Assembly: GCA_041288095.1 (NCBI GenBank)
Contig: JBGGMJ010000195.1
Coordinates: 1 to 27,804, forward strand
Direction of reading: 5' to 3'
Length of the DNA: 27,804 nucleotides
DNA from: Myxococcota bacterium
GTDB taxonomy: Bacteria > Myxococcota > XYA12-FULL-58-9 > JALHOP01
Every line of letters starts with the position of its first letter. The stretch's first letter is position 1. The notes beneath the pieces are model-generated. The model made no database searches. It saw nothing but the letters and a program-made list of their open reading frames with translations, and had not been told where the DNA came from. The position numbers and the translations under genes were made by a program. Shown here piece by piece: positions 5,637 to 25,188 of this stretch.

Positions 5637-7262
5637 CTACGGCGGGTCGACCGTCAACACGAGGTCGACGTTGCCGAGCGTCGGTGCATAGCCGCCGAAC
5701 GGAACGTTTGCGGTCGCGATCTCGAGGACATTGTCGCCGTCGACGAGATCGCCTTCCTCGATGTCGAAGACGTGGCCCAGCACGCCGATGATGAGGGCGT
5801 TCTGCGAGCCGGCCATGTCGCCCGCGAGCGCGACACCGCTAACGAAGAGCGTCTCCTCCGCCGGCGTGAGATCATAGGTGCGCCACGTATTGCCGTTGAG
5901 GCGGTAGGTGATGCCCCACGTCGAGAGCCCGACGTTCGTGAAGTTGCCGAAGTACTGCACGTTCATGGCGAGCCTCGCCCGCACCGCTTGGGCGCTGCCT
6001 TCGACACCGCGAATCGTCACCGTCGTCTTGGTCGCGGCGCTTGCGTCTCCGAGCATGTAGCCCACCGCGACGCTGTTGTCAGGAGCGGCGACCAGTGCGT
6101 CGCGCACCTCGAACTCACGCGTGTTGTCGATCACCGGTCCGTCAAAACCGACATTGTCCCAGCGCACGACCCAAGCCTGCCTGGCGTCCGCCGGGTGCGC
6201 TGCCGTCCAATACTTGTCGGTCGCGTGGTTGCGCGCGATCAGCTGGACGTATCCGCGGGTGAACGAGAGGTCGAGGTCGGTGCTCGCAACCAAGCTGGCC
6301 GGGCCGAAGTCGACTCCGTCGTTCGAGTACGGCGTCGCCCAGAGCTCGAGGTGTGTTCGTGAGAGCCTCAGCTCGAAGTGATTGAGACTGTGATGCAGCA
6401 CGGAGATGCACTCAGCCGCGAGAGCGTCCTCCTCGTGCACGTAGTCCACGTAGTTACTGTACTCGTTGACCACCGTCACCTTGGTCTCGGCCGGGCCACC
6501 ACAAGAACCGTTGAGCTCGACCGTGATGCCGTTGCGCGGGATGACGCCGCCTTCGAAGTTGCCGGCACCTGGAATGAGAGAAAAGCCCGGCGACGGGATG
6601 GGATCTTCGGTAACCGCGATAGCGATCCAGCCGAGCAGCCCGATGGTTGTTGCATCGGCGTCGAACACGATGGTGCCGGTGCGGTCAGCGAAGTCGAACG
6701 GCTGGCGAATGCGATACGCATTCGACCCGTAGTTCTGCGCCGCGGTCACGGTGAGCAGATGATTGCTCTGAATGGCGCTGTTGCCGTCGCAGATCCGCGT
6801 GTCACCGGGAGGAGACACTTCCGCCGGCACGTCCGCTCGACACTGACTGACACTGCCGGGGCCGATCTCGTTCGGCTTACCCAAGGTGGGTTCGTTGCGA
6901 GCGAGGCTCCAGCGACGCGCGTCGAGCTCGAAGGAGCGCCCAGAGGTCGAAACCGCCGGCGCATCGAAGGTGTCGCAGAACGCCGCCGCCGAAAGACCAC
7001 AACCGGGGTTACCGTCCGGCCAGTCCACGGTTTCTTCGTCGCCATCGCCGCTCGTGGCGTCCCCGCCGGCTGCATCACCCGCGCCATCACCGTCGTCAGC
7101 GCCGCCCGTGCCACCACTCGAGTCACCACCGTCGACGACACTGTCCTCGTCGGTGGCGCCGGCGGGGCCCAAGCCGTCGATCCCGCGCACTTGTCCCATG
7201 CAGCCCACCACAGAGAGCCACACGAGAGGGACGAGCTTTAGGTGACGCCTTCGGTTCATCAC
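5637..7262 (-). CDS. Uncharacterised lipoprotein, divergent paralog 1 of the local family (possible ConA/LamG-like beta-sandwich) with an extra C-terminal domain
   Basis: Lipobox VVGC and Gly/Asp linker. It shares [28 protein letters not shown] and WDNVGFDGP blocks with the genes at 10205, 11346 and 12707. It starts 5 nt after the anti-sigma stop (the start could be 7259). Confidence 0.8.
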
Positions 7263-9113: not shown

Positions 9114-9147
9114 TTAGTGGAGCCAGAGGCGTTTAGCGGGCGGATCT
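9114..9147 (-). promoter_or_regulatory. Candidate ECF-sigma autoregulatory promoter AGATCCGCCCG-N16-CCACTAA
   Basis: The minus strand reads AGATCCGCCCGctaaacgcctctggctCCACTAA, 29 nt upstream of the sigma ATG. Boxes and spacing are identical at 11272 and 12633. Confidence 0.8.
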
Positions 9148-9152
9148 AATTG

Positions 9153-10133
9153 CTATCGAAAGCGCCAGGCGACACTTAGGCCCGCATAGGGCCGCAACAG
9201 CCAAGGGACGATGTCCGCCGGTGTGGCGCCATGTACTTCGAAGTGGGTGCGACGCAGCTGCGCTTCGACGCCGAGGGTGGCGACGAGACTGAGCTCCGAG
9301 ACCAGCCTGACCTCGCCCTCGAGCATGGGCCCGACGCCGAGCTCGACGTTGGTGGTGGCCGGGGAGGTCTCGGCCGAAGAAGGCAAGGCCTCGGTCACGC
9401 GCCGCGTCCACTGCAGCGTACCGGTTAGGCCGACGCCGCCCTGCACGCGGTCGCCGCCGAAGCGGAAGGCGGCGTGCGCGCGGAGTGACTGTGCCTGCAA
9501 ACGCAACCGCGTCGCCGACTCCGAGAGGTGCAGCGGCGCGGCGTAGCCGTACGCGAGGCCCATGGCGAGCCATTGCACCGGCTCGACGGTCACGCCCGCG
9601 ATCGCGGAATGAAGGACGCTCGAGGTCGCGAGAGCTGAAGCGCGGTAGCCGAGGGCGACCCGCAGGTTGGGCGAGAACGTCCGCGGTAGCCGCTCCAGCG
9701 GTACCGGGCGGCCTTCGAGCACGGCGAGGGTGATCTCCCGCGCCATGGCGCTGAGCTCCTCGATGCGGGCCGCCATGGGGTAGTCCGCTGGCGACGGGAC
9801 GCGGCGGACGTACGTCTCGTCGTGCTCGCGCAAGTAGACGATGAGCTCCGAGCGCGTGGCGCTGATGTCGAGCCACATGACGGCGGCGACATCGTTCTCT
9901 TCCGCCAGGGTCTCGGCGTGTCGGGCCCAAGCCTGGGGCTGCTGCGCCGGCTCGACGTGCCACAGCGGCGTCGCCGGCAGGTCGGCTACTTGCGCCTGGA
10001 CGGCGGCGGACAGCTCCTCCGGTGCGAGGCTTCCGAGCACATAGAGAATGCGACGCGGCTCTTCGGCGTGCCCGGTCTTGGCAACGCTAAAGTGGACGAA
10101 GCAAACCACCGAGAGGATGAACCGCGCTGACAT
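9153..10133 (-). CDS. Putative outer-membrane/exported protein of the ECF cassette (N-terminal alpha/beta domain, C-terminal amphipathic beta-strands)
   Basis: Signal-peptide-like start MSARFILSVVCFVHFSVAKTGHA, alternating beta-strand pattern, and C-terminus PYAGLSVAWRFR. It lies directly upstream of the sigma gene. Confidence 0.7.
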   Translation of the reverse strand: MSARFILSVVCFVHFSVAKTGHAEEPRRILYVLGSLAPEELSAAVQAQVADLPATPLWHVEPAQQPQAWARHAETLAEENDVAAVMWLDISATRSELIVYLREHDETYVRRVPSPADYPMAARIEELSAMAREITLAVLEGRPVPLERLPRTFSPNLRVALGYRASALATSSVLHSAIAGVTVEPVQWLAMGLAYGYAAPLHLSESATRLRLQAQSLRAHAAFRFGGDRVQGGVGLTGTLQWTRRVTEALPSSAETSPATTNVELGVGPMLEGEVRLVSELSLVATLGVEAQLRRTHFEVHGATPADIVPWLLRPYAGLSVAWRFR

Positions 10134-10204
10134 GAGACGAAGAGACCCTACAACACATCCGTGCATGGACGCTGCATGCTTCTCACGCTACCGTCTCTCC
10201 GGCG

Positions 10205-11260
10205 ATGTCGTTTCTCCTCCGAACTGGGTTCGTGCTCTGCCTCGGCCTCGCCGCGTGCAAAGCGGTGGACGTCGTCGGTGATACCCCGATTGTCTGCGAT
10301 CAAGACGACTGGGCGCTCTGCGAAGGCTTCGACGGCTCGGGGCGCGCTCCTTTCGAGCCCGCGCTCTACGGCATCGACTTTCACGTCCACAGCGCCGCGA
10401 CCCTCACGGGAATCAGCTGTGAGACCTCGGGGGACTGCACGCCCTACGTCGAAGACGGCGCTTTGTTTCTGAACTCCGAGGATAGTGGCTACGGCATGGC
10501 CGTGATGCGCATGGAGCGGCCCTTCGACTTCTCCGGTCGCGAGGGACGCATCCACTATCGCAGCGACCTCAAGGGGCAGCCTCGCATGCTCCAGGTGATG
10601 TACTTGAGCCCGACGCTCTCGAACACGTTGCCTGATCTGCGCATCAGCGAGGCGATCGACGCCGGCCCGGCGCTCAGCGTCACTTACTACGGCGGCAACG
10701 GACAGCCGTTCGCGGTGATCAGATGGCAAGATGGCGCGCCCGCGCAAACACTGCTCGTTCAGGGCGACCTCGGGATCACGCGGGGCAATCTTTACGACGT
10801 CGACATCTTCGTCACGCGCACGAGCGCCCGCGTGCTCATCGACGGCGAAAGCGTCTTCGACGCGGCGCTCGATGATCTCGGCTTCGACCGGGGCTACGTG
10901 TATTTCGCGCAGGTCGCGAACGATCCCGCCAAGGACGGGTTCGTCGGTGACGAGGTCAACCGCATCATCTGGGACGAGCTCGCCTTCGACGGACCATTGC
11001 TGCCGAGAAATTCGCTGACGCCCGCCGACAAACAAGACGTGTTGTTCCGCGCTTGGGATGCCGCGGCCTGCACCGTGCGCGGCGTTTCGGCGCAGGGCCC
11101 GTTCACGCCGCCGGTCCTGCTGTTCGACACCTGGCGCGTGCGACTCGATCGAGAAGCCCCAGAGGTTCTGGTGAGCGACATCAGTTGCACGCGGTACGAG
11201 ATGGTGACTCCGCACTCAGGCGACGCGCTCATCGGCGACATCCACGTCGTCACGCAATAG
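10205..11260 (+). CDS. Uncharacterised lipoprotein, paralog 2 (no acidic linker, His motifs partly lost)
   Basis: Lipobox LAAC. Colinear with paralogs 3 and 4 (WALCEGFDG, CETSGDCTPYV, PFDFSGREGR, DLGFDRGYV, WDELAFDGP, VLFRAW). Confidence 0.85.
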   Translation: MSFLLRTGFVLCLGLAACKAVDVVGDTPIVCDQDDWALCEGFDGSGRAPFEPALYGIDFHVHSAATLTGISCETSGDCTPYVEDGALFLNSEDSGYGMAVMRMERPFDFSGREGRIHYRSDLKGQPRMLQVMYLSPTLSNTLPDLRISEAIDAGPALSVTYYGGNGQPFAVIRWQDGAPAQTLLVQGDLGITRGNLYDVDIFVTRTSARVLIDGESVFDAALDDLGFDRGYVYFAQVANDPAKDGFVGDEVNRIIWDELAFDGPLLPRNSLTPADKQDVLFRAWDAAACTVRGVSAQGPFTPPVLLFDTWRVRLDREAPEVLVSDISCTRYEMVTPHSGDALIGDIHVVTQ

Positions 11261-11265
11261 CGCTC

Positions 11266-11345
11266 GAAAAAAGATCCGCCCGGTCCGCCCCCCGGCGCCC
11301 ACTAACCGGGAGAAGCGCACACCCCTGTCGCGCTGGGAGCGGATC
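11266..11345 (+). repeat. Duplicated ~80-bp upstream region, copy 1 (promoter plus 5' UTR)
   Basis: GAAAAAAGATCCGCCCGG...GCCCACTAACC-GGAGAAGCGCACACC---GTCGCGCTGGGAG-G-ATC-ATGAAG is shared with 12627-12706; divergence is concentrated in the promoter spacer. Confidence 0.9.
11272..11305 (+). promoter_or_regulatory. Candidate ECF-sigma promoter AGATCCGCCCG-N16-CCACTAA
   Basis: AGATCCGCCCGgtccgccccccggcgcCCACTAA, 40 nt upstream of ATG 11346. Confidence 0.8.
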
Positions 11346-12626
11346 ATGAAGGTCTTCGTCGTTCTCCTCGGATTGGTGATGGTCGCTGGTTGTGGACGGA
11401 CCGGCAACGGTGATCCTGGGGATCTGCCGCCGGCCGGGGGGAGCAACACCGGCGCCAACGACGAAGGCAGCAACGACGCCGCCGACGACGAGGTTGATAC
11501 GTCGAACGACGACAGTGCGAACGACGACGGTGCGAACACCGAAGAGCCGGACGACACTCCAGTGCTCGAGCCGATCGAGCCGATCTATCCCAAAGACGGC
11601 TTCTGCAACACGGGCGGGATGAGCTGGGGCTGGTGCGAAGACTTCGATGGTCAGGGCACGAGCGGCCCGGTTGCTTTCGACGCGGCCGCCTCGGCCATCG
11701 CCCTGCACAGCCACAGTCACGGGACGATGACCGGCACGCTCTGCGAGACGTCAGGTGATTGCTCGCCTTACGTGCAGGGTGGCTCGCTCTTTCTCAACGC
11801 CGAAGACGGCGGCTTTGCCATGAACGTGTTGCGCGTCGAGCAACCCTTCGACTTCGAGAACCGCGAAGGGCGCGTCCACTATCGCAGCAGCATGCAAGGG
11901 CATGGGCGCATGCATCAGGACATCCACATCACGCCGACGATCTCGAACACGCTTCCGGACCTGCGCTTCGTCGATAAGCCGCGCGACGGTGATGCGATCG
12001 ACATCGACTTCGTCGGCGACGGCGGCTGGCCGTTCACCATCGTGGTTTGGCGAGACGGCGCGAAAGCCTATCTCGCTCACGCCAACGGGCCGATCGGCGT
12101 CACGTCGGGCGTGCAGCAGGATATCGACGTCTATGTCTCGCGCTCACACCTGAGTGTCCGCGTCGACGGTGTGGAGGTCTTCGACTCCGACGAGCATCCC
12201 GGCGAGGACGGTGCGCCGTTTCCCGACCTCGGCTTCACGCGCGGCTACGTGCACTTCGCGCAGCTCGCCTACAATCCCGTCAAAGACGGCTACTACGGCG
12301 ATGCTCCCAACACCTTCCTCTGGGACGACCTCGCCTTCGACGGACCGTCGCTCCCGCGAAACGGCCTCACGCCGGTCGGCAAGAAGGAAGTGCTCTTTCG
12401 CGCCTGGAACAAGGCCTCGTGCACGGTGCGCGGCCTCGCGGCGGACGGCCCAGTCGCCGGCGGTTGGTACATCGACACGTGGCATGTCCAGGTCGACGCC
12501 GGCCAGGCGATTGCCATGGATGACATCACTTGCATCGCGAACCCGGATGGCTCGGGCCAGCCGGATCCGTTCCCGACGCCGTACGGGCAGCCGTTCATCG
12601 ACGACCTCCTCTTCGTCGTGCGCTGA
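11346..12626 (+). CDS. Uncharacterised His/Met-rich lipoprotein, paralog 3
   Basis: GGGAG RBS, lipobox VAGC, Asp/Asn-rich linker, HSHSH and HGRMH motifs. Long identical stretches are shared with paralog 4. Confidence 0.9.
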   Translation: MKVFVVLLGLVMVAGCGRTGNGDPGDLPPAGGSNTGANDEGSNDAADDEVDTSNDDSANDDGANTEEPDDTPVLEPIEPIYPKDGFCNTGGMSWGWCEDFDGQGTSGPVAFDAAASAIALHSHSHGTMTGTLCETSGDCSPYVQGGSLFLNAEDGGFAMNVLRVEQPFDFENREGRVHYRSSMQGHGRMHQDIHITPTISNTLPDLRFVDKPRDGDAIDIDFVGDGGWPFTIVVWRDGAKAYLAHANGPIGVTSGVQQDIDVYVSRSHLSVRVDGVEVFDSDEHPGEDGAPFPDLGFTRGYVHFAQLAYNPVKDGYYGDAPNTFLWDDLAFDGPSLPRNGLTPVGKKEVLFRAWNKASCTVRGLAADGPVAGGWYIDTWHVQVDAGQAIAMDDITCIANPDGSGQPDPFPTPYGQPFIDDLLFVVR

Positions 12627-12706
12627 GAAAAAAGATCCGCCCGGCGGGCCTCGCTCCGCCCACTAACCAGGAGAAGCGCACACCTCCGTCGCGCTGGGAG
12701 AGAATC
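12627..12706 (+). repeat. Duplicated ~80-bp upstream region, copy 2
   Basis: Matches 11266-11345 as described for copy 1. Confidence 0.9.
12633..12666 (+). promoter_or_regulatory. Candidate ECF-sigma promoter AGATCCGCCCG-N16-CCACTAA
   Basis: AGATCCGCCCGgcgggcctcgctccgcCCACTAA, 40 nt upstream of ATG 12707. Confidence 0.8.
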
Positions 12707-14002
12707 ATGAAGCTTTTCGTTGCTCTGCTCGGGGTGGTGATGGTGGCGGGTTGCGTTGGGAGCGTCGACGGCGGCGACCCTCGGGATCTCTCGCGTGGTG
12801 GTGGCAGCAACACGGATACGAACACCGACACCACCGACACCACCAACAACAACAACGACGACGCCGTTGACGACGCCGCCAATGACGACGCGTCGAGCGA
12901 CGACGATGCGGACACCGACGAGCCCGACGCTCCCCCAGAGCTCGAGCCGATCGAACCGATCTATCCCAAAGACGGCTTTTGCAACCAAGGCGGCGTGAGC
13001 TGGGGCTGGTGCGAAGACTTCGATGGTCAGGGCATGAGCGGCCCGGCCGTCTTCAACGCCGCGGCCTCGGGGATCGATCTGCACATTCACAGTCACATGA
13101 CCATGACCGGTACTCTCTGCGAGACCTCTGGGGACTGCTCCCCGTACGTTCAGGGCGGCTCGCTCTTCCTCAACGCCGAAGACGGCGGCTTCGCCATGAA
13201 CGTCGCGCGCGTCGAGCAGCCTTTCGACTTCGAGGGCCGCGAAGGTCGCGTCCACTTTCGCAGCAGCATGCAAGGCCACGGGCGCATGCATCAGGACTTG
13301 CACATCACCCCCACGATCACGAACACGCTCCCTGATTTGCGCACCATGGAAAAGCCGCGCAAAGGTGACGCAATCGATGTCGACTTCGTCGGCGAGGGCG
13401 GCTGGCCATTCACCATCGTGGTCTGGCGCAACGGCGCGAGGGCATACGTCTCTCACGCCAACGGCCCCATCGGCGTCGTGTCGGGAGTGCAGCAGGACAT
13501 CGACGTCTACCTCACGCGCAACCACTTGAGCGTGCGCGTGGACGGTGTCGAGGTCTTCGACTCCGACGATCACCCTGGTGAAGACGGCGCACCGTTCCCC
13601 GACGTCGGCTTCACGCGTGGCTACGTGTCTTTCGCGCAGGTCTCTTACAACCCAGCGAAGGACGGTTTCTCCGGTGACGCCGCCAACACCTTCCTCTGGG
13701 ACAACCTGGCCTTCGACGGACCGTCGCTCGCCAAGAACTCGCTGACCGCTACCGGCAAGAAAGAAGTCCTGTTCCGCGCCTGGAATAAAGCCACGTGCTC
13801 GGTGCACGGCATCACCGCGGATGGCCCGATGACAGTGGGGTGGTGGATCGACACCTGGCATGTCCAAGTCGACGCGGGTCAGTCCGTTACCATGGACGAC
13901 ATCACCTGCGTGGCGAATCCCGACGAGTCGGGGCAGCCGAGTCAGTTCCCGACCCCGTACAACCAGCCGTTCATCGACGACCTCCAATTCGTCGTGCGGT
14001 GA
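12707..14002 (+). CDS. Uncharacterised His/Met-rich lipoprotein, paralog 4
   Basis: Start corrected from 12530 to MKLFVALLGVVMVAGC, by homology to paralog 3 and the RBS. Contains HIHSHM and HGRMH motifs and a Thr/Asn/Asp low-complexity linker. Confidence 0.9.
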   Translation: MKLFVALLGVVMVAGCVGSVDGGDPRDLSRGGGSNTDTNTDTTDTTNNNNDDAVDDAANDDASSDDDADTDEPDAPPELEPIEPIYPKDGFCNQGGVSWGWCEDFDGQGMSGPAVFNAAASGIDLHIHSHMTMTGTLCETSGDCSPYVQGGSLFLNAEDGGFAMNVARVEQPFDFEGREGRVHFRSSMQGHGRMHQDLHITPTITNTLPDLRTMEKPRKGDAIDVDFVGEGGWPFTIVVWRNGARAYVSHANGPIGVVSGVQQDIDVYLTRNHLSVRVDGVEVFDSDDHPGEDGAPFPDVGFTRGYVSFAQVSYNPAKDGFSGDAANTFLWDNLAFDGPSLAKNSLTATGKKEVLFRAWNKATCSVHGITADGPMTVGWWIDTWHVQVDAGQSVTMDDITCVANPDESGQPSQFPTPYNQPFIDDLQFVVR

Positions 14003-14006
14003 ACCC

Positions 14007-16433
14007 ATGCGTAGCACGAACAAGGCCTGGTGTGTCCTCGCTGCACTGATTGGTGTTGCGTGCGATAGCGGAGTGTTCGCGCCCGATGGTGGCGGCGGCA
14101 ACGACGAGACGAGAGCCAGCCTCTTGAGCCTTTCGCCAGCGTCGACGTTACCGGCACCACCGGCTGACCCCAGCAACGAGGTCGCCGACGACCCGGCGGC
14201 GGCGGCGCTCGGCCAGGCCTTGTTCTTCGACCCCGGCTTCTCCGGCGTCCTGCTCGAGAGCGACAACGACGGTCAACATGATGGCGTCGGGCTCCAGGGC
14301 GAGACCGGCAAGGTGTCCTGCGCGAGCTGCCATGTGCCAGAGTCCGCTTTTACGGATACGCGCACCATTCACGAACAGCTGTCGCTGGCGGCAGGCTGGA
14401 CCAACCGGCGCACACCGACGATACTCGATGTCGCTCAGGCGAAGCTCTTGATGTGGGACGGGCGCTTCGAGACGTTGCAGCGCCAGGTACTCGCCGTGTT
14501 CGAGTCGCCGCTCGAGGGCAATAGCTCGCGGTTGTTCTTCGCTCAAGAGGTCGCCCGTCGCTATGGCGGACAGTATCGAGAGATCTTCGGGGTCGACCCG
14601 GCTGTCGTGCTCGGACCCGGCTATCCGCAAATCACCGCGGCGCAGACCGGTTGCCAGCTCACCCTCACCAGCTCGACGACGCCCGATGACGCTTGCAGCA
14701 ACGGCACGCTCCATGGAGTGCCCGGCGCCGCGGACTACGAGGCGCTAAGCGACGAACAGCAGGATGTCGTCACCACGATAGCTCTCAACGCGGGCAAGGC
14801 TGTCGCCGCCTACGAGCGCCTGCTGTCGTGCGGCCCGAGCCGCTTCGATGCCTTCATGCATGGCGACACCACCGCGCTCACCGAGTCCGAGCAACGCGGC
14901 GCCGCCTTGTTCGTCGGCAAGGGGCAATGCGCGAGCTGCCATAGCGGACCATTTTTTTCGGATCAGAGCTTTCACAACGTCGGCCTCTTCCCGGCCATGG
15001 TCTCGGGTGCCTTCATCCGGAAGGACGATCGTGGCGCCGAGAAGGTTGGGCCGAACATGCTCGGCGCGTTCCGCACGCCGACGTTGCGCTGCGTTTCGCA
15101 ACGCCCGTCCTTCATGCACACCGGGCAGCTGCGCACGCTCGCGCAGGTGGTGGAGTACTTCGACAAGGGCGGCCACAAGCAACCCGGCGTCACGCCGGCA
15201 GCCATCGTCGGTTACCTCGGCGAGACCGAGATCGCGCCGCTCGGACTCGATGTGCAAGAGAAGGCCGACCTTGTTGCCTTCCTCGAAGCGCTCGACGGGG
15301 ATGGACCACCGGCGGAGCTGCTCGAGGCGCCGCCGCCCGCGGGCACACAACCCGATCCGGATCCGGACCCGACCACGGGTGGTCCGCCTCATGCCGACCC
15401 CGTCGGACCGGTGCCTCCGGCTGACTGGGTGAACGTCACGAGTAACCTCGCCGGCATGGCCTCCGAGTGCGGAAACGCCGCCAACATCTTCTCGAGTCCC
15501 TGGCGCGACATGCTGATCACCGGTGTCGCTCGACACGGTCTTTATGCGAGCAGCAACGGCGGAGCGACCTGGGTGTCACTCGGCAGCGCCGGCGGCGACA
15601 CCGTCCTTCATCGCATGAGCCACATCGTCTTCGACCCGACGAACGCCAACAGGTGGTGGGAGTCGGGCATCTATGGTTGGGAGTCACCCTGGTCGGAAGG
15701 TGTGTTCATCACCAACGACAACGGCAACACCTTCGAAGGGTTCGCCAACATGGGCGCACAGGGGCAGTCGCACAACGACTCGGTGAGCGTCGACTTCACC
15801 GACCCCGATCGTCAGACCATCTTGTCGGGCGGCCACGAGCAAGGTGTGTCCGATGGCCAAGGCTTGTTCCTCTCGACCAACGGTGGAGGCACCTTCGTCG
15901 ACATCATGAACAGACTGCCCGCAGGCCTCGGCTTCTGCGTGTCGACGCTCGTGCTCGACGATGACGAGCTCTTGGTAGGCTGCGGCGGATCGTGGAAGGG
16001 CCAGACCCAAGCCATCGTTCGCTCGGATGACGGCGGCGCGAGCTGGGAGACGGTCAGCAACATCGGCGGTGTCGGCCAGCCGCTCCTTGCCTCGGACGGA
16101 AGAATCTATTGGTCGTCGGCCAGCGGCGGCATGTTGCGGAGCGACGACCGTGGCTTGACGTTCGACTTGGTCGCCAACGGCAGCAAGACCGGCGCCGTTC
16201 CACCGTTCGAGTTGCCTGACGGACGTGTCGCGTCAGTGTCCGCTAACGCGGTCGTTATCTCGTCCGACAGGGGCGTGACGTGGACGACCGTAACCGAAGC
16301 GATCCCGTTCACGCCGATCGGCGTGACATACTCACCGTTTCGTCGTGCCTTCTACGCATCGCACTTCGATTGCAGCAACAACGTGCCGGCGGACGCGCAC
16401 GCTCGCTTCGGTTGGGACTACGAGGCCCACTAG
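14007..16433 (+). CDS. MauG/bacterial cytochrome c peroxidase-family di-heme lipoprotein fused to a C-terminal BNR/sialidase-like beta-propeller
   Basis: Lipobox GVAC; ALGQALFFDP; CASCH at 14319-14333 and 14928-14942; RRTPTI, MWDGR and FRTPTLR...FMHTG; Pro/Asp linker; repeated Asp-box motifs SSNGGATW, STNGGGTF, SDDGGASW, SDDRGLTF, SSDRGVTW. It starts 4 nt after the paralog 4 stop. Confidence 0.88.
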   Translation: MRSTNKAWCVLAALIGVACDSGVFAPDGGGGNDETRASLLSLSPASTLPAPPADPSNEVADDPAAAALGQALFFDPGFSGVLLESDNDGQHDGVGLQGETGKVSCASCHVPESAFTDTRTIHEQLSLAAGWTNRRTPTILDVAQAKLLMWDGRFETLQRQVLAVFESPLEGNSSRLFFAQEVARRYGGQYREIFGVDPAVVLGPGYPQITAAQTGCQLTLTSSTTPDDACSNGTLHGVPGAADYEALSDEQQDVVTTIALNAGKAVAAYERLLSCGPSRFDAFMHGDTTALTESEQRGAALFVGKGQCASCHSGPFFSDQSFHNVGLFPAMVSGAFIRKDDRGAEKVGPNMLGAFRTPTLRCVSQRPSFMHTGQLRTLAQVVEYFDKGGHKQPGVTPAAIVGYLGETEIAPLGLDVQEKADLVAFLEALDGDGPPAELLEAPPPAGTQPDPDPDPTTGGPPHADPVGPVPPADWVNVTSNLAGMASECGNAANIFSSPWRDMLITGVARHGLYASSNGGATWVSLGSAGGDTVLHRMSHIVFDPTNANRWWESGIYGWESPWSEGVFITNDNGNTFEGFANMGAQGQSHNDSVSVDFTDPDRQTILSGGHEQGVSDGQGLFLSTNGGGTFVDIMNRLPAGLGFCVSTLVLDDDELLVGCGGSWKGQTQAIVRSDDGGASWETVSNIGGVGQPLLASDGRIYWSSASGGMLRSDDRGLTFDLVANGSKTGAVPPFELPDGRVASVSANAVVISSDRGVTWTTVTEAIPFTPIGVTYSPFRRAFYASHFDCSNNVPADAHARFGWDYEAH

Positions 16434-22285: not shown

Positions 22286-22293
<8 letters not shown>
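21754..22293 (-). CDS. Exported TPR-like protein with C-terminal TM anchor
   Basis: Signal peptide MRELIALMLILCLGAA, helical TPR-like segment AQRAYDAVRYDDAEALL...SPKI, and PPTHWYASPWVWVGVGVVVAAA tail. The start overlaps the activator stop. Confidence 0.8.
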
Positions 22294-23611
<1,318 letters not shown>

Positions 23612-23676
23612 GGTGCGCCTGCGAGCGTACGTGAATGCTTCGCGAAATCGCAAGTCTGCGGATACCCTCGACCTAA

Positions 23677-25188
23677 GTGCCCACCGGAATCAGCTTTGGT
23701 CGATACAGGCTACTGCAGCGACTCGCTGTCGGCGGCATGGCCGAGGTGTTTCTCGCGGCCATCGACGGCCCGGAGGGCTTCAGCAAGCGCGTCGTCATCA
23801 AGCGCTTGCTGCCGCACCTGGCGACCGACTCGGCGTACATCGACATGTTCGTGGACGAGGCGCGGCTCGCCAGTCGCTTCAATCACGCCAATCTCGTCCA
23901 GGTGCACGAGCTGTCGAACACCGCCAACCAGTATTTCATCGTCATGGAGTACCTGCGGGGCTTGGACCTCGCGCACGTCATCGACCACTGCGAGGTAGCG
24001 CGGAAACCGGTGCCCGAAGACGTCGCCCTGCATCTCATCGCGCGCGCTTGCGAGGGGTTGCACTATGCGCATCAGCTTCGTAACGACGCGCACGAGCCGC
24101 TCGCCATCGTGCATCGCGATGTGTCGCCGACGAATCTCTTCGTGACCTGGACGGGCGAGCTCAAGGTCGTCGACTTCGGCGTCGCCAAGTACAGCGGCGC
24201 GATCGGCGAGGAAGAGGGCGTCCTAAAAGGCAAGCCGGGCTACATGTCACCCGAGCAAGCGCGTCTCGAGCCCATCGACGGGCGCAGCGACCTATTCTCG
24301 GCGGGCGCGGTGCTCTACGAGCTGCTGACGCTGGAGCCATTCCTGGCCGCCGGCCCGCATCACGTCATGCTCGCGGCGGCGGGTGGCTTGCGCGACACGC
24401 GACAGAGACTCTCACACCCGCGCATCTCCGACGAGGTACGAGCGGTGCTCGGCCGCATGCTCGAGCCGCGAATCGACAAGCGCTATGCGACAGCACTCGA
24501 CGCGGCACGTGATCTCGATCGCCTGTCGTCGCGGCGCGAGCGTCTGATGTCGAGTGACATCGCTCGCTTCGTCGGCGGCTTGGGTGCGAAGAAAGAAGGC
24601 CAACGCGTTCCCACCGCCATCGTGCAGCCGGGCCAGCACCTGGTGCGGGGAGCGTTGACCGACCCGCGCGTCGATCCGCGCGCACGCCAGCGGCCGCGCC
24701 GGGTTTTCTTCACCGTGGCGACTGTATTGCTCGTGGCCGCTATAGCGGCTGGCCTGTTGCTGCGGCGCGAGGTCACGCTCAGGGAGGTCGTTCCCGTGCG
24801 GCAGTCGGCGCACCAGCCCGAGGCGCCACGGGCACCGGCGCCGATTCCCGAGACCGTGGAGGTAGCAAGAGACCCGCCCCCGGTCCCGCCGCGCCCAGCA
24901 GCGCGACCGTCACCGAGAAAGTCGTCGCGTCCCGAGCGGCGCCGCGCCGAGAGCACACCGACGACTACCCGTCCGCTCGAGAAGGGCCACGTCGCCTTCG
25001 ACGTCCGCCCCTGGGCCGACGTTTATCTCGGTGGCCAACAGCTCGGTACGACGCCCATGGCGCCGATTGAGCTCGCCGAAGGCTCCTACACCTTCACGCT
25101 CGTGAATCCGAAAAGCTCGACCTCGAAGAAAGTCACGGTGCGAGTGCCCGCGGGTGGCACGGTGAAGCTCGAAGCGCGACTCGAGTAG
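23677..25188 (+). CDS. Membrane-bound Hanks-type Ser/Thr protein kinase with C-terminal PEGA-like domain
   Basis: LAVGGMAEVF, VVIKR, HRDVSPTN, DFG, YMSPEQ and DLFSAG; TM helix; Pro-rich linker; RPWADVYLGG..LGTTP PEGA-like segment. Confidence 0.95.
   Translation: MPTGISFGRYRLLQRLAVGGMAEVFLAAIDGPEGFSKRVVIKRLLPHLATDSAYIDMFVDEARLASRFNHANLVQVHELSNTANQYFIVMEYLRGLDLAHVIDHCEVARKPVPEDVALHLIARACEGLHYAHQLRNDAHEPLAIVHRDVSPTNLFVTWTGELKVVDFGVAKYSGAIGEEEGVLKGKPGYMSPEQARLEPIDGRSDLFSAGAVLYELLTLEPFLAAGPHHVMLAAAGGLRDTRQRLSHPRISDEVRAVLGRMLEPRIDKRYATALDAARDLDRLSSRRERLMSSDIARFVGGLGAKKEGQRVPTAIVQPGQHLVRGALTDPRVDPRARQRPRRVFFTVATVLLVAAIAAGLLLRREVTLREVVPVRQSAHQPEAPRAPAPIPETVEVARDPPPVPPRPAARPSPRKSSRPERRRAESTPTTTRPLEKGHVAFDVRPWADVYLGGQQLGTTPMAPIELAEGSYTFTLVNPKSSTSKKVTVRVPAGGTVKLEARLE

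Follow-up and report, generated by a model that had tools for sequence, protein, structure and literature searches.

A predicted promoter for an ECF sigma factor and neighboring lipoprotein genes in a Myxococcota bacterium

Autoregulation is a textbook mechanism of extracytoplasmic function (ECF) sigma factors, and the FecI/FecR/FecA system of cell-surface signaling combines a membrane anti-sigma factor carrying a periplasmic FecR domain with iron transporters as targets. We analyzed a 27,804-nucleotide stretch of a Myxococcota genome (contig JBGGMJ010000195.1; hereafter the window) in which an ECF sigma gene and two tandem lipoprotein genes are each preceded by the bipartite motif AGATCCGCCCG-N16-CCACTAA. 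By fit to the published description of the sigma/anti-sigma pair, this sigma factor probably belongs to group ECF267, with ECF210 and ECF216 as candidate alternatives. ECF267 is recorded as having no conserved promoter in the excerpted group description (Casas-Pastor et al. 2021, PMC7826278), where the tree groups it with ECF02 and ECF32 in a single clade; the hrp box of HrpL/ECF32 is given as GGAACC-N15/16-CCACNNA (excerpts of PMC8809351 and of the PMC7826278 supplement). An earlier note on the window had proposed that the motif is the target promoter of the adjacent sigma factor. Our comparisons support this proposal: it is highly probable that the motif comprises a -35 box CCGCCCG, a 16-nt spacer and a -10 box CCACTAA read by that sigma factor to control a small local regulon, because the motif is conserved across genomes, emerges unseeded from the wider sigma family, keeps a fixed spacer and co-occurs with the sigma factor.

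Motif copies in the window, congeners and sigma clade

The motif occurs without mismatch at three places in the window (Table 1), and allowing up to three mismatches also returned three matches, compared to 0.03 expected. The 18 shared box bases (18/18) and exact 16-nt spacer reported for the three copies in the earlier note were reproduced. All copies are intergenic, have the same orientation as the gene that follows and end 30–40 nt ahead of its start codon. A genome-wide scan, as suggested in that note, covered 212 contigs (5.85 Mb) with spacers of 14–18 and found no further exact copy, so the motif is no genome-wide repeat; the next-best sites were two with two mismatches each. Between the sigma copy and the lipoprotein copies, identity was 18/18 in the boxes, 6/16 and 4/16 in the spacer and 10–14/30 in the 30-nt flanks. 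Since these copies resemble each other in the boxes only, duplication does not explain the match, which bears out the earlier view that duplication alone was inadequate. The copies upstream of paralogs 3 and 4 share 9/16 spacer bases.

Table 1. Genes and predicted promoter elements of the window
Feature	Position	Strand	Remarks
Lipoprotein paralog 1 (distant)	5637..7259	-	Lipobox VVGC; 8 nt past anti-sigma gene; putative operon member
Predicted anti-sigma factor, 418 aa	7268..8524	-	HxxxCxxC 34-41; hydrophobic helix 74-92; FecR; TPR
ECF sigma factor, 187 aa	8521..9084	-	Pfam Sigma70_r2 and r4_2; TIGR02937 above cut-off
Predicted autoregulatory sigma promoter	9114..9147	-	Exact motif; matrix rank 1, 28.0 bits
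Sigma promoter parts	flank AGAT 9147-9144; -35 CCGCCCG 9143-9137; 16-nt spacer; -10 CCACTAA 9120-9114	-	Putative start ~9107
Gene 5' of sigma gene	9153..10133	-	Same strand as sigma gene; exported; stops 5 nt before motif; not downstream of any copy
Lipoprotein paralog 2	10205..11260	+	Lipobox; without motif
Predicted paralog 3 promoter	11272..11305	+	Exact motif; A-tract/AGAT; -35 11276-11282; -10 11299-11305; 27.3 bits
Predicted paralog 3 transcription start	~11312	+	Placed from homolog start codons; promoter retained in congener
Lipoprotein paralog 3	11346..12626	+	Lipobox; no Pfam family; predicted mostly beta fold, pLDDT 87
Predicted paralog 4 promoter	12633..12666	+	Exact motif; -35 12637-12643; -10 12660-12666; 27.3 bits; MauG-like gene by read-through
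Predicted paralog 4 transcription start	~12673	+	Placed from homolog start codons
Lipoprotein paralog 4	12707..14002	+	Lipobox; 74% identical to paralog 3
Di-haem CCP/MauG-like protein fused to BNR/Vps10-like domain	14007..16433	+	4 nt past paralog 4; putative operon member

Because the motif had been picked post hoc, a matrix built without the window provides a fairer test. A 49-protein profile, whose members were selected on protein sequence alone, matched 125/331 genomes of one related class. The top-scoring 90 of these matches were combined with 13 earlier loci to give 103 homologs, 97 of which passed a 165-bit cut; this number excludes the window and its congener, and dereplication below 70% identity left 74. 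These 74 are Myxococcota proteins (source names Myxococcota, Polyangia and Polyangiaceae) with 27–41% identity to the window sigma. Unseeded expectation maximization (EM) from random starts on the 160 nt upstream of the 74 genes yielded a.aaa..tcCa.CCg-N16-cCACt, with a log-likelihood of 342 compared to 115 on shuffled sequence; motif discovery upstream of related sigma genes, which the earlier note had suggested, thus recovered the same shape. Refinement placed a site in 65/74 homologs, and later steps used 73 (one was dropped for Ns), of which 61 scored well.

In a matrix built from 18 homolog sites next to sigmas with the same K-D helix as the window sigma, the window copies ranked 1–3 of 11,689,370 positions, scoring 27–28 bits compared to 16.3 for the next position, and a matrix from R-D sigmas likewise placed them 1–3. 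When sites were picked on the -35 half alone (leave-one-out), xCAC stood at spacer 16 in 41/73 homologs and at any other spacer of 10–23 in at most 6/73. The -35 sequence varied with the helix of the adjacent sigma: it was mostly CCRCCCG for K-D, mostly xCRTCCx for R-D and TGACCC for K-G (4/4). Second sites of at least 18 bits were present in 5/16 long homolog loci, with 19 matches on real and two on reversed sequence, a count in which the sigmas' own sites belong partly to the matrix training set. Five of the seven second sites examined precede proteins with signal-peptide or lipobox-like N-termini, as judged by eye (arabinofuranosidase B, IgGFc-binding, thrombospondin-3 repeat, FG-GAP and one without family), and the members of the clade therefore appear to regulate exported proteins encoded close by.

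Other collections gave no comparable signal. The exact 17-base pattern was found at 29 metagenome loci, none near a sigma, anti-sigma or lipoprotein homolog and one an unrelated kinase match, and these were treated as chance. Two-mismatch matches in other relatives were about as frequent as in backwards controls. The myxococcal 'ETVRSRL' sigmas, best by plain similarity, showed no pattern match and were left out of the clade by the 165-bit cut.

Among three congeners, only G002 has a clade sigma (90% identical). Its motif carries one mismatch before the sigma gene and none before two lipoprotein paralogs, one of them 18 kb away, and its spacers differ from those of the window while the boxes persist. 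In the other two (97% and 84% complete), the searches returned neither a clade sigma nor a lipoprotein match, and the motif was absent at up to two mismatches. G002 also shows signs of rearrangement. A fourth copy (27 bits; L026:2744-3400, G002:C28 from ~14743 onward, plus strand) precedes a remnant from which the sigma gene is deleted, the sigma start being fused to the zinc-finger N-terminus of an anti-sigma; this remnant could yield a small soluble anti-sigma. At L026:1624 (minus strand; G002:C28 ~13623), a left half-site is fused into a frameshifted lipoprotein pseudogene, with the -10 box and the 5' end of the gene deleted.

Predicted promoter architecture, recognition and alternatives

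Comparison with homologs indicates that the -35 box is the 7-mer CCGCCCG. In the 11-mer described earlier as the left box, AGAT, together with the A-tract, corresponds to a variable A/T-rich flank in homologs; AGATCC was rejected as a -35 box since those bases vary among homologs. Among the homologs, the position of the earliest in-frame start codon peaked 6 nt past the -10 heptamer (11/61, with 28/61 at 1–7 nt), counts that valine codons within the reading frame may inflate. This peak places the conserved A at -11 and CCACTAA at -13 to -7, and is the pattern expected of leaderless mRNAs. Many clade sigma genes (loci L136-L225) look leaderless, often with GTG (17 of the 28 starts at 1–7 nt), and G002 has an in-frame TTG 2 nt past the box where the window has TGG. 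The window genes have predicted leaders of 23–34 nt, with purine-rich stretches ahead of ATG. Transcription would begin ~6 nt past the -10 box, with the upstream A-tract serving as a putative UP element. Counted from -30 to -13, a convention that we infer from Table S1 of PMC7776599, the 16-nt spacer becomes 17 nt and falls within the range of 16–18 in the excerpts of that paper.

An AGCGC...GCGCT stem (11314-11334 and 12675-12695) is kept in the four leaders of lipoprotein genes in the window and G002; folding z-scores were ~0, no covariation was seen and the leaders showed no folding advantage over shuffled sequence. Rfam covariance models had no match over the motif copies and one weak, chance-level match elsewhere. 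A sigma70 scan of the window returned no sites, and the 13 terminator-like matches (7.4 expected) included none that was convincing between genes of the putative operons.

The residues of the sigma factor partly fit this promoter. In sigmaE, Ser172 reads G-34, Arg171 the C-31 pair and Arg176 G-35 (PMC1540707, excerpt); at these positions the window sigma has D161, K160 and R165, respectively, in the sigma4.2 helix N157-T-V-K160-D161-R-L-V-R165, and its sigma2 residues are E56/R80/K84. Among the 61 homologs, Asp at the Ser172 position goes with C-34 in 39/41, compared to 3/20 for other residues, and Tyr with T-34 in 6/6. At -32, Lys goes with C in 21/32 and Arg with T in 26/29. All homologs (61/61) combine K or R at the Arg171 position with C-31, which is partly circular. 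Glu occupies the Lys56 position in 50/61 and coincides with A-11 in 43/50. Acidic residues at this position are tied to -11A, and an HrpL-group mutant gives Lys171 a preference of 0.98 for -31C, in the excerpted data of PMC7776599. The published specificity rules fit the window at -31 and -11 and misfit at -35 and -12. By this comparison, K160 and D161 would read C at -31 and -34 (sigmaE numbering) and E56 would accept A-11; the residue-base code, Asp to C-34 and Lys/Arg to -32, is a lead, not a result.

Several observations weigh against recognition by the adjacent sigma. No good site was found for 12/73 homologs, and of the seven second sites, one lies 216 nt before a cytoplasmic aldolase and one has no clear open reading frame. 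In the excerpts of PMC7776599, a Ser172Asp mutant of another sigma is near unselective (C 0.32, A 0.25, T 0.22, G 0.21) and Asn84Lys has no preference for CC (0.11); C-12 occurs in just 1/4 homologs with Lys at the Asn84 position. The window sigma keeps Arg at the position of R176, the G-35 reader in sigmaE, yet its -35 base is C. On trees built without the helix, the Asp/C-34 link has eight residue changes, yet the independent pairs with good support number only 2–4, which is not significant after phylogenetic correction (p = 0.125 at best); for Lys/Arg and -32 there are two such pairs. Finally, the genome assembly is 90% complete, so another sigma or further sites could be missing. With these points weighed against the conservation described above, the motif is real and specific, and it very likely functions as an ECF promoter that serves a small local regulon.

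The best sustained alternative, though very improbable, is that the motif is a promoter read by another sigma of the genome, which would act as a higher-level regulator of both the sigma gene and the lipoproteins. The genome contains 21 further ECF-like matches in addition to any that are missing from the assembly, and HrpL, whose hrp box is similar to the -10 box, is described in the excerpted literature as not autoregulated. However, the -35 sequence shifts with the helix residues of the directly downstream sigma, the congeners without the sigma also lack the motif, and the window sigma is the sole member of its clade in the assembly (209.9 bits compared to 98.4 for the next in the profile search).

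Also very improbable is a reading in which the copies have no part in transcription initiation and either remain from local duplication or represent a conserved RNA element. The locus is prone to duplication, as seen in the second G002 cluster with its sigma-less remnant (27 bits) and the half-site before a broken paralog, and 27/30 bases are identical downstream of the copies that precede paralogs 3 and 4. Yet the likeness of the sigma and lipoprotein copies stops at the boxes, the motif recurs before sigmas that are 27–41% identical, and neither the Rfam search nor the folding of the leaders points to an RNA element. An operator of a one-component activator or repressor is very improbable: in its favor are only the intergenic, conserved nature of the motif and a sigma54 activator 13 kb away, but the motif is neither palindromic nor repeated, has a fixed 16-nt free spacer and a single orientation to genes, is followed by the start-codon peak 6 nt downstream and tracks the sigma clade. 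Apart from the sigma system, no regulator of the window recurs across the 18 long homolog loci (the sigma54 activator was matched in 1/18).

Predicted local regulon and neighboring genes

The adjacent ECF sigma would read all three predicted promoters, and so drive its own sigma/anti-sigma/paralog 1 operon together with the paralog 3 and paralog 4/MauG-like units. In a matrix scan of the window, these three sites alone scored (the next reached 9.3 bits). The regulon proposed in the earlier note stands for the sigma gene and paralogs 3 and 4, which have their own sites; the scan detected none for the anti-sigma gene, paralog 1 or the MauG-like gene, which would join by read-through, given gaps of -4, 8 and 4 nt and the gene order shared with G002. 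Leaving paralog 2 out was right, its best site scoring 2.7 bits. TGGACG-N17-TACCGT (10166-10194, plus strand), ahead of paralog 2 and largely retained in G002, is a possible housekeeping promoter; it fell under the threshold of the sigma70 scan.

The anti-sigma gene overlaps the sigma stop by 4 nt. Its FecR domain scored above the cut-off and TPR_14 just under (22.8 compared to 23.5 bits). Zinc-finger anti-sigma domains were found in 49/103 homolog loci, about half the clade, and among 30 of 90 homolog +1 genes scanned at E 0.001, many of them cut at the locus edge, 23/30 matched FecR, 17/30 TPR and 11/30 both. At seven loci (L136, L140, L141, L143, L145, L157, L193), the N-termini of the +1 products align with the zinc-finger ones but lack the His and first Cys ligands, and appear to be zinc-free variants within one family. 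A model in which the sigma is paired with the N-terminal domain of the anti-sigma scored 0.51, compared to 0.07 for the best control, with at least 45% of contacts agreeing between runs and a partner pLDDT of at least 68. The mark used was passed by 116/157 solved and 2/215 mismatched pairs; scores of up to 0.60 include just 18 of the passing solved pairs, yet both passing mismatches. This model weakly supports the pairing, and its pass may reflect memory of solved complexes.

The gene 5' of the sigma gene has homologs at position -1 of three clade sigmas (L137, L139, L142), and its product is a candidate outer-membrane partner in place of FecA. This product (10133-9153, minus strand) ends in alternating hydrophobic strands and a terminal aromatic residue, and similar ends precede many clade sigmas.

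The lipoproteins had no Pfam or NCBIfam family match and no solved relative; Atlas leads were DUF6645 and a sialidase-like CBM, with few shared features, and the structure model of paralog 3 is confident and beta-rich. Paralog 1 matches the paralog 3 family with an hhalign probability of 97%, and gene order is the same in G002. For paralog 4, a small correction places the start at ATG 12707. Lipoprotein matches among 401 genomes were confined to G000, G002 and G361. The MauG-like gene also lies 3' of a lipoprotein gene in G002 and in G361, which lacks the clade sigma and whose best site scored 7 bits, with none before the lipoprotein. Its position in this sigma-less genome suggests that the lipoprotein-MauG pair may be an older unit that later gained this promoter.

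Elsewhere in the window (22286-25188), an FHA-sigma54 activator is divergent from a PEGA-domain Ser/Thr kinase, a typical myxobacterial pair; no tie to the motif was seen.

Significance and comparison with described systems

Neither the promoter consensus nor its wide distribution in a large myxobacterial clade appears to have been described: a literature search found no paper giving this promoter, although the logos of PMC7826278 and Datasets S1 and S2 of PMC7776599 could still hold such promoters, and a search of the excerpted PMC7826278 supplement text (CCAC, CACT, CCCG, GTCCG, ATCCG) returned no group with it. The analysis provides a concrete predicted promoter for a widespread sigma clade whose likely group was published without one. 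Direct targets of clade sigmas become predictable from sequence, and whether the FecR-TPR protein controls the sigma is made testable. The clade further offers a candidate Asp-to-C entry for the ECF specificity code and naturally orthogonal sigma/promoter pairs.

A broader joint reading is tentative, and we consider it more doubtful than probable. It holds that the clade is a large, mostly uncultured myxobacterial ECF family with C-rich -35/HrpL-type -10 promoters and often leaderless mRNAs. Two helix-residue swaps would generate orthogonal variants, with Asp, Gly, Ser and Tyr matched to C, G/T, G and T at -34 and Lys or Arg to C or T at -32. TonB-receptor-free surface-signaling modules, each comprising a sigma copy, a zinc-finger/FecR/TPR anti-sigma and an upstream outer-membrane protein, would capture nearby exported proteins as their genes gain the promoter.

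Compared to ECF267 as excerpted from PMC7826278, the window shares a FecR-like anti-sigma fused to TPRs at +1 and a myxobacterial host. That description also places 1–3 kinases nearby; in the window, 14.6 kb separate a kinase from the sigma, and a kinase match was present in 7/18 homolog loci of 16–19 kb. No FecA-like or TonB-dependent receptor was found among 16 window proteins in a scan that was not exhaustive, again in line with the group. The differences are the conserved promoter predicted here, the clade's zinc-finger anti-sigma domain, absent from the excerpted group description, and hosts that extend past Sorangium and Chondromyces.

Of HrpL/ECF32, the window shares the -10 box, CCACTAA fitting CCACNNA. 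It differs in having CCGCCCG rather than GGAACC at -35 and boxes 1–2 nt further apart, in the predicted anti-sigma and apparent autoregulation of its sigma, and in that the scan of window genes turned up none for type III secretion. With E. coli sigmaE/AlgU (ECF02), it apparently shares the correspondence of residues 171 with -31/-32, 172 with -34 and 56 with -11 (excerpts of PMC1540707 and PMC7776599), and its regulon fits the 'local regulator' class of the latter paper; the -35 AAC core is replaced by RYC, Asp172 goes with C-34 and many clade members look leaderless.

The likeness to FecI/FecR/FecA lies in the membrane anti-sigma with a FecR domain. The window genes scanned include no FecA-like receptor, the anti-sigma has additional TPRs and a zinc finger, and the predicted targets are exported lipoproteins, exported surface proteins being the likeliest output of the regulon. 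The membrane-spanning zinc-finger/FecR/TPR protein would hold the sigma until an envelope signal frees it, and positive feedback would amplify the response. The system would operate in the same way as other autoregulated ECF sigmas that are paired with a membrane anti-sigma, and in this respect its mechanism is ordinary.

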